Both the position numbers and the translations under genes were made by a program. The notes under the pieces are model-generated. The model made no database searches and was not told the origin of the DNA. It saw only the letters and a list, made by a program, of their open reading frames with translations. DNA of 64,000 bases from an uncultured Gammaproteobacteria bacterium (lineage in GTDB: Bacteria > Patescibacteriota > Patescibacteriia > Magasanikbacterales > UBA922): contig CAYUTO010000004.1 of the NCBI GenBank assembly GCA_964447765.1, positions 22,561 through 86,560 on the forward strand. Reading direction: 5' to 3'. Of this stretch, positions 26,925 through 29,070 are shown piece by piece; the stretch's first letter is position 1; every line of letters starts with the position of its first letter.

Positions 26925-26964
26925 ATTTAAAAAAATAAAACAAAAACCGCCCGATTAAGGGCGG
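26925..26964 (-). terminator. Intrinsic terminator downstream of the 16S rRNA
   Basis: ccgcccgattaagggcgg hairpin with a long U-rich tail on the minus strand. Confidence 0.65.
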
Positions 26965-27107
26965 CTTGTTATTGAAGATGATTCACTTAATACATGTGGC
27001 AAAAACACGATTGAACGTTTTCTTATACTTAGAACTGGCCAGATCATACTCTTGCGAGTGTAATACTGACTTTGGATATATTCTAACTTTCATTAGAATT
27101 GACTCCA

Positions 27108-28613
27108 GAAAGGAGGTGATCCATCCACAGCTTCCGCTACGGATGCCTTGTTACGACTTAACCCTGATCATTGACCCTGCCTTCGTCCCCCATACGGGAG
27201 CCTTCGGGCATTGCCAACTTTCGTGGTTTGACGGGCGGTGAGTACAAGACCCGAGAACGTATTCAACGCGCCGTGCTGATGCGCGTTTACTAGCAAATCC
27301 AACTTCACGTAGACGAATTGCAGCCTACGATCCGAACTGAGACCGGCTTTATGGGATTGGCTCCACCTCGCGGTTTGGCGTCCCTCTGTACCGGCCATTG
27401 TATCATGTGTGTAGCCCAAGACGTAAGAGCCATGCTGATTTGACGTCGTCCCCACCTTCCTCCCGTTTGCACGGGCAGTCTCGTGTGTATATTTAACACA
27501 CGACGGGGGTTGCGCTCGTTACCCCACTTAAGGGTACACCTCACGGCACGAGCTGACGGCAACCATGCAGCACCTGTGTAGCACCCTCGAAGGCGGCTCC
27601 TGTTTCCAGGAGCTTGCAGCTACATGTCAAGCCTTGGTGAGGTTTGCCGCGTACCATCGAATTAAACCACATGATCCTCTGCTTGTGCGGGTCCCCGTCT
27701 ATTCCTTTGAGTTTTAACCTTGCGGCCGTAGTCCCCAGGCGGTGTACTTAACGCGTTAGCTTTTTTAAACGGCACTTAGAGGGTCGATACTCCAAATACC
27801 TAGTACACATCGTTTAGGGCGTGGACTACTGGGGTATCTAATCCCATTCGCTCCCCACGCTTTCGTCCATGAGTGTCAGAACTGTTCCAGTATACTGCTT
27901 TCGCCTTTGGTGTTCCTGTTGATATCAACGCATTTTACTACTACACCAACAGTTCCGTATACCTCTCCCAGTCTCAAGTTTCCCAGTATTGAAAGCAGTC
28001 TCTAGGTTAAGCCCAAAGATTTGACTTCCAACTTGAAAAACCACCTGCGGACGCTTTACGCCCAATGAATCCGGATAACGCTTGAGGTCTCTGTATTACC
28101 GCTGCTGCTGGCACAGAGTTTGCAACCTCTTATTCATATGGTACCGTCAAAAATTCTTCCCATATAAAAGCAGTTTACACCCCGAGGGGCGTCTTCCTGC
28201 ACGCGGCGTCGCTCCGTCACACTTTCGTGCATTGCGGAATATTCCTGACTGCAGCCACCCGTAGGTGTCTGGGCAGTATCTCAGTCCCAGTGAGCCGGGT
28301 CACGCTCTCACGCCCGGTACTGATCATCGTCTTGGTAGGCCATTACCCCACCAACTAACTAATCAGACATAGACCTCTCTTTAAGCACCGAAGTTTTACA
28401 TGAGAATGGCCTCAAGCCCCCTCATGCCTATCGAGTATTAATCCACCTTTCGGTGGGCTATCCTCGTCTTAAAGGTAAGTTATCAATGTGTTACTCTCCC
28501 GTTTGCCGGTCAGTGTTTCTTAGTATTGCTACAAAAAAATCTGTCCCACGACTTGCATGCCTTAGGCACGCCGCCAGCGTTCATCCTGAGCCAGGATCAA
28601 ACTCTCAATAAAT
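27108..28613 (-). rRNA. rrs: 16S ribosomal RNA (about 1.5 kb, no intron-sized insertion)
   Basis: 3' end is the reverse complement of aaggaggtgatcc...ccttgttacgactt (anti-SD CACCUCCUU). 5' end is the reverse complement of ctgagccaggatcaaactct (AGAGTTTGATCCTGGCTCAG). Conserved internal blocks are present, e.g. gtattaccgcggctgctggcac. Confidence 0.9.
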
Positions 28614-29041
28614 TGAGTGATTTTCTCCGAAGAGAAAATTAGTGTTTGATTGTAATCAACATATTTACTCAAAAATATGTGTGATTCTCATATACTAGAT
28701 TAAGCATATGAGTTAGCTCTAAGAAAATAGACGATCAATCGGTTTTTGCCACGTGTATTACGTGAACTTATTGCGCATCCTCCGTAGAGCCTGGCGCAAC
28801 ACCGTATTAATCATTTTTGCTGTATTGTTGTTTCACATCTTCAAATTGTAAAGATCGTATCCTTTTTTTTCTTCGCTAAAAGAAAAAAGAGAAACTCTGT
28901 TGCTTTTCCAATAATGTGAATTAGGGGAAAAGCAAATATAGTCGCTCTTTTCTTAGTATCTCGGTCCAGTGACATGCTCGCCTAAGTTAAGGCTAGTAGA
29001 CTTGAGAAAAGGATAAGTTATAAATATCAGATAGCTCGCAT

Positions 29042-29070
29042 ATAGTATAAAACTCTAAGACATCTGTCAA
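29042..29070 (-). promoter_or_regulatory. Sigma70-like promoter for the 16S rRNA
   Basis: On the minus strand: TTGACA, 17 nt spacer, TACTAT, about 420 nt upstream of the 16S 5' end. Confidence 0.55.

Follow-up and report, generated by a model that had tools for sequence, protein, structure and literature searches.

The subject of this report is a 16S ribosomal RNA (rRNA) gene that lies apart from other rRNA genes in a stretch of 64,000 nucleotides (nt) from contig CAYUTO010000004.1 (positions 22,561 to 86,560 of the forward strand). We call this whole stretch the window and count all positions in it. The gene occupies 27109..28612 on the minus strand, downstream of trmD and between fusA and tuf. 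The Rfam model RF00177 (SSU_rRNA_bacteria) matches it from position 1 to 1533 of 1533, with 1436.4 bits against a gathering score of 50, which identifies it as a full-length bacterial 16S gene, 1504 nt long. Its covariance-model alignment contains no intron-sized insertion, the anti-Shine-Dalgarno CCTCC is intact, and the sequence is 97-99% identical to the 16S of the nearest Magasanikbacteria metagenome-assembled genomes (MAGs). A preliminary description of this DNA, made from the letters alone, had seen here an intron-free 16S gene of about 1.5 kb that forms a stand-alone unit. The present analysis bears this out, as promoter, leader, terminator and a covarying helix that brackets the gene are all conserved among relatives.

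Neither 23S nor 5S rRNA gives an Rfam match at the gathering thresholds anywhere in the window, which extends 27.1 kb downstream and 35.4 kb upstream of the 16S, and a scan of the window for universally conserved 23S motifs was negative. A search for transfer RNA (tRNA) genes over the same 64 kb found no spacer tRNA next to the 16S; the sole tRNA is tRNA-Pro(ggg) at 39061-39134, 10.4 kb upstream. At a relaxed Rfam threshold (E <= 1) over 25000-32800, only chance-level matches appeared besides the 16S, indicating that this block hides no structured RNA of a known family. The preliminary description was thus right that no 23S, 5S or spacer tRNA follows the 16S and that the rRNA genes are unlinked; a 23S gene just downstream on the same transcript was specifically looked for, and none lies within the window. 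No 23S gene is found in the 1500 bp after the 16S, the distance by which Brewer et al. (2019/2020, 10.1101/705046) separate linked from unlinked genes. Lui et al. (2021, PMC8172020) ask for more than 2 kb without same-strand genes able to bridge the operon, or for opposite strands, and here the terminator at 26967-26934 and an opposite-strand open reading frame (ORF) at 26365-26613 exclude co-transcription with a 23S.

Upstream, a spacer separates the 16S from trmD, which encodes the tRNA m1G37 methyltransferase (29201..29947, minus strand; Pfam PF01746, E = 4e-55). A consensus scan found in this spacer a sigma-70-type promoter, TTGACA-17-TACTAT, at 29070..29042 on the minus strand (10/12 matches), the very hexamers that had been proposed about 420 nt upstream of the gene. 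The predicted transcription start is near 29035, at a distance of about 423 nt from the 16S 5' end. Taken from a single sequence, such a match is weak evidence, since 8 kb contain 25 promoter-like sites against 16.3 +/- 4.1 expected by chance. In an alignment of the trmD-16S spacers of nine close relatives, the -35 and -10 hexamers are invariant or near-invariant, and conservation begins only about 60 nt upstream of the promoter and predicted start, with none from the trmD stop to that point. In 16/16 loci the trmD-16S spacer contained a perfect TTGACA and, 16-18 nt further on (17 nt in 15 loci), TAnnnT; this match precedes the 16S by 300-490 nt in most loci and by 150-235 nt in the distant L074 and L078 (L numbers denote the loci and contigs compared). 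An inverted repeat, TTATCCCCAATATGTGAACAATTGGGA, abuts the -35 element (29084..29110, minus strand) and is kept in eight of the nine close relatives; it is a possible regulator binding site. TTATCCCCA differs by one mismatch from the DnaA-box consensus, TTATCCACA, and L012 carries TTGTCCACA.

The predicted 5' leader of about 423 nt (28613..29035, minus strand) is conserved throughout in the alignment of nine relatives. It contains a hairpin, read from the sequence, with arms CTAAGAAAAGAG ... CTCTTTTTTCTTTTAG (28876..28956, minus strand), followed by the element GATCTTTACAAT (28845..28856, minus strand), which is conserved in the same alignment and adjoins the 5' side of the helix described below. 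The hairpin arm CTCTTTTTTCT recurs with at most one mismatch in 12/16 loci, distant ones included, and relatives carry GAACTTTAACAA or GAACTTTGACAA in place of GATCTTTACAAT, again after the conserved hairpin. In E. coli rrn leaders the boxB hairpin comes before boxA, GCTCTTTAACAA. The likeness in layout is good, with the hairpin here at the boxB position and GATCTTTACAAT as a boxA-like element, but the boxA sequence is imperfect, and no boxC was identified here, unlike in E. coli rrn. The arrangement would be that of the classical rrn antitermination leaders, and Nus-type antitermination may reasonably be inferred from it.

The leader is complementary to the trailer. When the two were joined by a tetraloop and folded, they formed a near-continuous long-range helix (minimum free energy -149.3 kcal/mol), in which leader positions 28844-28715 pair with trailer positions 27035-26972. 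The 5' strand (28715..28844, minus strand) has its core at 28742-28766 and an outer segment, TTGAAGATG, at 28836-28844, while the 3' strand (26972..27035, minus strand) has its core at 26982-27006 and an outer segment, CATCTTCAA, at 26972-26980. Measured against shuffled trailers, the duplex reaches z = -8.1 in the window and lies between -3.3 and -8.1 in 11 of 12 loci of the Magasanikbacteria clade, the remaining one being L025 with -1.8. RNAduplex applied to entire leaders and trailers over-extends and is noisy; for covariation, 14 genomes were anchored on the motifs GTGRCAA (leader) and TTGYCAC (trailer), and 25 pairs were scored. Standard pairs fill 90.9% of the cells, compared with 80.5 +/- 1.2% in shuffled controls and 29-52% when the partner was slid by 1-3 columns. 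Changes on both sides were observed in 12 of the 25 pairs (40 cells), and not one of 500 shuffles reached the observed covariation score. The analysis was limited to these 14 genomes because in the distant L033, L074 and L078 the duplex z-scores are non-significant and the GTGRCAA/TTGYCAC motif is absent. Leader-trailer pairing with compensatory changes marks this helix as a probable 16S processing stem; in classical rrn operons, sequences flanking the 16S form the RNase III processing stem. No RNase III domain was found among the window ORFs scanned. The outer 3' strand CATCTTCAA (26980-26972) stops 4 nt before the stem of the terminator, which places promoter-proximal and terminator-proximal sequences in one RNA with the 16S as its sole cargo.

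This terminator, placed by the preliminary description about 150 nt downstream, was recovered by the consensus scan at 26934..26967 (minus strand). Its stem (26967..26944) begins 142 nt after the 16S 3' end, consists of 9 bp, six of them G-C, and runs into the T-run TTGTTTTATT. Stem and T-run are kept in 6/6 close relatives while the hairpin sequences themselves vary (AGCCGCCC/GGGCGGTT, AACATCC/GGATGTT, CATCCCGAT/ATCGGGATG and others), indicating compensatory change. An automatic test placed a terminator at +84 to +256 in 17/19 loci, and imperfect or short stems are visible by eye in the two others, L010 and L082. A terminator-like hairpin stands directly after the processing helix even in loci that retain tRNA-Ile behind the 16S, suggesting that the 16S-only unit is older than the relocation discussed below. 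Just past the terminator, at 26802-26880, the 14-nt arms TTCGGGGGTCAAAA/TTTTGACCCCCGAA form a perfect inverted repeat that encloses about 51 nt. It is adjoined by an A/T hairpin (26889-26916), and the segment, which is unique within the window, folds with z = -4.2. It is common to L010 and L082 and absent from L005, L008 and L011, and by this patchy presence it behaves as an indel or a small mobile-like element.

A TrmD scan of species-representative genomes returned Candidatus Magasanikbacteria/Magasanikiibacteriota MAGs as the closest relatives; their NCBI lineage runs through the Patescibacteria group and the Parcubacteria group. In the best relative, L005, TrmD is 89%, the 16S 99% and the ribosomal proteins 97-99% identical. 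Judged from its sequence, the source organism is a bacterium of the candidate phyla radiation (CPR), Candidatus Magasanikbacteria. The order trmD-16S-(acidic gene)-tuf was observed directly on single contigs in L005, L008, L010, L011, L016, L020 and L024. The longer series fusA-...-trmD-16S-...-tuf is complete in L005, L008, L010, L016 and L020 and partial in L011, L019, L021, L023, L024, L026-28 and L082, and parts of the order rpsL-rpsG-fusA-...-trmD-16S-...-tuf-rpsJ occur in at least 14 related genomes. Exact-protein look-ups retrieved short Logan contigs from SRR12712864 and SRR12712865 that are 100% identical to the window. L001 and L002 span 33272/30886..28579 and enter the 16S 5' end by 34 nt, and L003 and L004 span 27151/27136..25091/25088 and hold 43 nt (L003) or 28 nt (L004) of its 3' end; the exact look-up of the EF-Tu protein gave no contig. 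Both flanks are therefore independently attached to the correct ends of the 16S.

The gene upstream of the 16S is shared more widely than its position between fusA and tuf. In 23/23 informative loci with TrmD at least 57% identical, trmD is followed by the 16S on the same strand, 0.4-3.4 kb apart, and the same holds, strand included, for 19/44 informative loci that are more distant. A context of smc-rpsP-KH-trmD-16S was found in L025, L029-L036, L041, L048, L050 and L074, of which L025 is the one Magasanikbacteria and the others are distant Patescibacteria. L048 and L050 continue past the 16S with tRNA-Val, tRNA-Ile, lepB and hisS, and tRNA-Ile(gat) is retained after the 16S in L074 and L078. 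In L033, a Patescibacteria single-cell genome, positions 14142-20087 comprise the 16S, 1 kb, tRNA-Ile, 0.9 kb, tRNA-Ala, 3.9 kb and the start of a 23S, which thus begins 6 kb from the 16S; a terminator-like hairpin is found there 184 nt after the 16S. A scan of 80 loci for conserved 23S motifs gave one isolated match (L072) and missed the 23S 5' fragment that Rfam found in L033, since that fragment comprises no more than the first 400 model positions. A third arrangement that keeps the 16S near trmD was observed in loci of the Uhrbacteria type (L037, L042, L045, L049, L051, L052, L067 and L083), where KH-trmD has the 16S 1-8 kb upstream, on the other strand, and rpsP downstream and inverted. 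The subclade of the window has the order rpsL-rpsG-fusA-trmD-16S-tuf-rpsJ; fusA abuts trmD in L019-L021 and L026-L028, and in the window, L005-L010 and L082 the two are separated by extra genes. An additional tuf match between fusA and trmD in L016 and L020 was assumed to arise because the EF-Tu query cross-matches the fusA GTPase domain, and was not used.

These comparisons modify one claim of the preliminary description, that the 16S was inserted between the str operon and tuf: the position stands, and what was inserted is trmD together with the 16S, not the 16S alone. It would thus be the trmD-16S pair that entered the str operon, from an older context, smc-rpsP-KH-trmD-16S(-tRNA-Ile...), that is widespread in Patescibacteria. 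The most economical reading of the gene orders would be a history in three steps, in which the direction of rearrangement is our own construction. An ancestral 16S-tRNAIle-tRNAAla-23S operon downstream of rpsP-KH-trmD would gradually have been stretched and broken, the tRNA-Ile after the 16S being a remnant of it. The trmD-16S pair would then have been relocated between fusA and tuf in one subclade of Magasanikbacteria, and NUDIX/NT5C and small hypothetical genes would have been gained later in the sublineage of the window.

A conserved promoter, 16S and terminator, together with a covarying helix, define one 16S-only transcription unit, and we therefore consider it very probable that this locus of a Candidatus Magasanikbacteria genome is a monocistronic unit for 16S rRNA. 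Transcription would start at the strong sigma-70 promoter at 29070-29042, cross the leader of about 423 nt, the 16S and a trailer of about 140 nt, and stop at the intrinsic terminator at 26967-26934. Leader sequence about 100 to 230 nt upstream would pair with trailer sequence about 75-137 nt downstream, bracketing the 16S in a classical substrate for the endonucleolytic release of pre-16S (by RNase III in model bacteria), and 23S and 5S would be made from another locus. At the level of sequence, the unit has its own promoter and terminator, both kept in relatives. Its independence is also supported by its surroundings, as fusA has its own terminator and convergent neighbours, and tuf and the acidic gene have promoters of their own. 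Several points weigh on the other side. The transcription start, the stop and the processing sites are predictions, with Nus-dependent antitermination and a processing nuclease presumed; the evidence on the position of 23S and 5S and on 16S copy number is confined to the 64-kb window; GATCTTTACAA of the window agrees with the E. coli boxA consensus at 10/12 positions with a one-base gap; and the seven anchor pairs of the helix are paired by construction, with the double changes mostly in flanking pairs. Finally, no intrinsic terminator lies between trmD and the 16S promoter in 12/16 loci, the window and all its close relatives included, which makes read-through from trmD into the 16S precursor possible. 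Such read-through is the core of an alternative that we regard as unlikely, though by no means negligible: trmD and 16S would form one operon, the 16S precursor being largely a 3' extension of the trmD mRNA and the internal promoter additive. In relatives the extension would be that of the whole rpsL-rpsG-fusA-trmD transcript, and the linkage would reflect co-expression of a tRNA-modification enzyme with rRNA. The missing terminator, where fusA and the 16S have clear ones, speaks for it, as do the order of trmD and 16S in all 23 closer and 19 of the 44 more distant loci and the fact that the pair stayed together in moving from the rpsP context into the str operon. It is difficult to reconcile with a strong promoter conserved in the trmD-16S spacer of every locus, with a spacer that is not conserved between the trmD stop and about -60 of that promoter and varies in length from 0.2 to 3.4 kb, and with the terminator that follows trmD in 4/16 loci. 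The opposite-strand 16S of the Uhrbacteria type further indicates that proximity to trmD persists without co-transcription.

Three other explanations are less likely still. The 16S could be linked to a distant 23S by read-through, in a stretched operon of the kind seen in L033, where the 23S follows 6 kb downstream on the same strand after tRNA-Ile and tRNA-Ala. We give this almost no credence, as a strong conserved terminator follows the 16S, and what comes after it, over 27 kb, is an ORF on the opposite strand, genes with promoters of their own, tuf and the S10/spc cluster, and no 23S. The gene could also be a spare or decaying copy, with a canonical rrn operon elsewhere supplying the ribosomes, a view to which the restriction to a 64-kb window of the genome lends some room. 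It is nevertheless improbable, for the gene is complete, scores high with Rfam and has its CCTCC intact, and in many genomes selection, purifying or compensatory, has acted on gene, leader, helix and terminator; moreover, complete CPR genomes in the published record, one Magasanikbacteria included, are listed with one 16S-23S distance each, mostly unlinked. The concern that the locus is chimeric, which the preliminary description had raised together with the suggestion of comparing synteny, deserves attention because the 16S interrupts short-read graphs: the Logan contigs reach only 28-43 nt into either end of the gene, and many MAG contigs end at the 16S start. An assembly artefact, in which the conserved 16S joined unrelated contigs or a foreign 16S was incorporated, would have to explain why, in each of two runs, both flanks reach with 100% identity into the correct ends of the 16S, why these flanks show complementarity over at least 60 nt, with covariation, why the same order runs across the 16S in L005, L008, L010, L016, L020, L024 and L011, and why 16S identity tracks protein identity among relatives. 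We find such an artefact scarcely credible, and retain the monocistronic 16S unit as our interpretation.

Separated rRNA genes have been described before in this part of the tree. According to Brewer et al. (2019/2020, 10.1101/705046), it is common in Patescibacteria for 16S and 23S genes to be unlinked, and the genomes concerned cluster phylogenetically; Lui et al. (2021, PMC8172020) give unlinked genes for 27/34 circularised CPR genomes, including, in S1 Table, a circular Candidatus Magasanikbacteria genome with the 16S and 23S 297,987 bp apart on opposite strands. The frequency in CPR noted in the preliminary description is thus a published fact, and the present locus is an instance of the same phenomenon, in the same taxon as that entry. 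As far as they were read, both papers score only distance, strand and intervening genes, and give no account of promoter, leader, helix, terminator, the position in str or trmD. The same papers (PMC8172020; 10.1101/705046) name further unlinked 16S genes of reduced or other genomes, in Thermus, Rickettsia, Buchnera, Helicobacter, Borrelia and Mycoplasma gallisepticum. In these the 16S is likewise its own unit, with 23S-5S elsewhere; unlike them, the gene studied here belongs to a CPR lineage, lies within a ribosomal-protein and elongation-factor cluster and has trmD as a partner.

Compared with E. coli rrn, the leader hairpin followed by a boxA-like sequence and the long-range pairing that flanks the 16S, here supported by covariation, are alike, whereas the spacer tRNAs and 23S that follow in E. 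coli are replaced after the helix by a terminator. The E. coli str operon is rpsL-rpsG-fusA-tufA, and fusA and tuf are classically adjacent. Order and strand of rpsL-rpsG-fusA and tuf-rpsJ are kept here, but fusA and tuf are split by trmD and the 16S, over 7.5 kb in the window and 4-10.6 kb in relatives, and fusA has its own terminator. The E. coli trmD operon is rpsP-rimM-trmD-rplS; distant Patescibacteria resemble it in keeping trmD after rpsP and a KH-domain gene, and differ in having the 16S downstream of trmD in place of rplS. Between KH and trmD, L048 and L050 show no rimM.

The remaining genes of the block complete the picture. The first three str genes, rpsL-rpsG-fusA, occupy 32673..35742 (minus strand; ORF translations and tblastn synteny), and tuf (EF-Tu) lies at 23972..25162 (minus strand) with a promoter-like site at 25298-25270; it is followed by rpsJ and then by the S10/spc cluster through secY, adk and map. 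With fusA ending at 32673 and tuf starting at 25162, the separation is the 7.5 kb stated in the preliminary description. The gap, a terminator and three convergent genes show that str is not a single unit in which tuf immediately follows fusA. The terminator (ACACCC...GGGTGT and T8, read from the sequence at 32621..32649, minus strand) sits between fusA and the convergent NUDIX - NT5C nucleotidase - NUDIX genes (31103..32622, plus strand; Pfam), which are carried only by those relatives whose TrmD is at least 83% identical. Two small hypothetical ORFs lie between these genes and trmD. On the tuf side, an acidic protein of 209 amino acids (aa) without a Pfam family is encoded at 25348..25977 (minus strand) behind its own 12/12 consensus promoter at 26045-26016, and homologues occupy the matching place in L005, L008, L010, L011 and L024. 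The small ORF at 26365-26613 (plus strand, 82 aa), with a C-terminal hydrophobic helix and a promoter-like site at 26161-26189, is the sole plus-strand feature between the 16S and tuf; hairpins follow its stop, and it was called as a gene on the Logan contig L003.

Elsewhere in the window, the 6S RNA model RF00013 matches over its full length at 39272-39424 (minus strand), immediately 5' of tRNA-Pro(ggg). The score, 36.4 bits, is below the gathering score of 46.4 (E = 3e-5 when 2.1 kb were searched), and the match may possibly represent a divergent CPR 6S RNA. Three stretches with a GC content of 0.49-0.51 against a background of about 0.40 are possible recent acquisitions: 30001-31000, with two hypothetical ORFs, one of which (174 aa) has homologues in relatives; 36001-37000, a gene for aspartate/ornithine carbamoyltransferase that directly precedes rpsL but is encoded on the opposite strand; and 40001-41000, with a GTG-start ORF of 156 aa without a Pfam family. 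An RNA gene at 30.0-31.0 kb was considered, but the stretch is treated as coding because of the protein homologues of the 174-aa ORF and the null result with Rfam. Three consecutive ORFs of 422, 324 and 1121 aa without a Pfam family lie at 207-5827 (minus strand), and ORFs of 1064 and 1330 aa with FG-GAP, NHL, fn3 and purple-acid-phosphatase-N repeats, probably surface proteins, at 56674-63922 (minus strand).

Our findings describe a real and, in its kind, ordinary feature: separated rRNA genes are already documented for Magasanikbacteria and the CPR, and since unlinked rRNA genes in the CPR have been published, current understanding is unchanged. What is added is the anatomy of the unit, the exclusion of chimerism, and the finding that trmD and the 16S move together. 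The result is a dissected 16S-only unit of a CPR bacterium, with promoter, antitermination-like leader, covarying processing helix and terminator, and a graded series of operon break-up, from 16S-tRNAIle-tRNAAla-...-23S through 16S-tRNAIle to trmD-16S inside the str operon. Practical use can be made of it in annotation and binning. Contigs of Magasanikbacteria MAGs usually break at the 16S; the fusA/trmD and tuf flanks can anchor a 16S to such MAGs, and the leader-trailer helix can serve as a test for chimeric joins. In the literature covered, which is incomplete, neither trmD-16S linkage nor a 16S within the str operon was found described, and we take this as a lead and not as proof of novelty; the conserved linkage appears undescribed and adds modest interest. 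It is tempting, if rather doubtful, to regard the trmD-16S pair as a selected functional unit in a large part of Patescibacteria, in which m1G37 methylation is coupled to small-subunit synthesis. If this were true, co-transcription or co-regulation of trmD with the 16S precursor would explain the joint move from the rpsP operon to the str operon, and the move would place the single 16S inside a supercluster of ribosomal-protein and elongation-factor genes, substituting for the lost co-regulation of the rrn operon.

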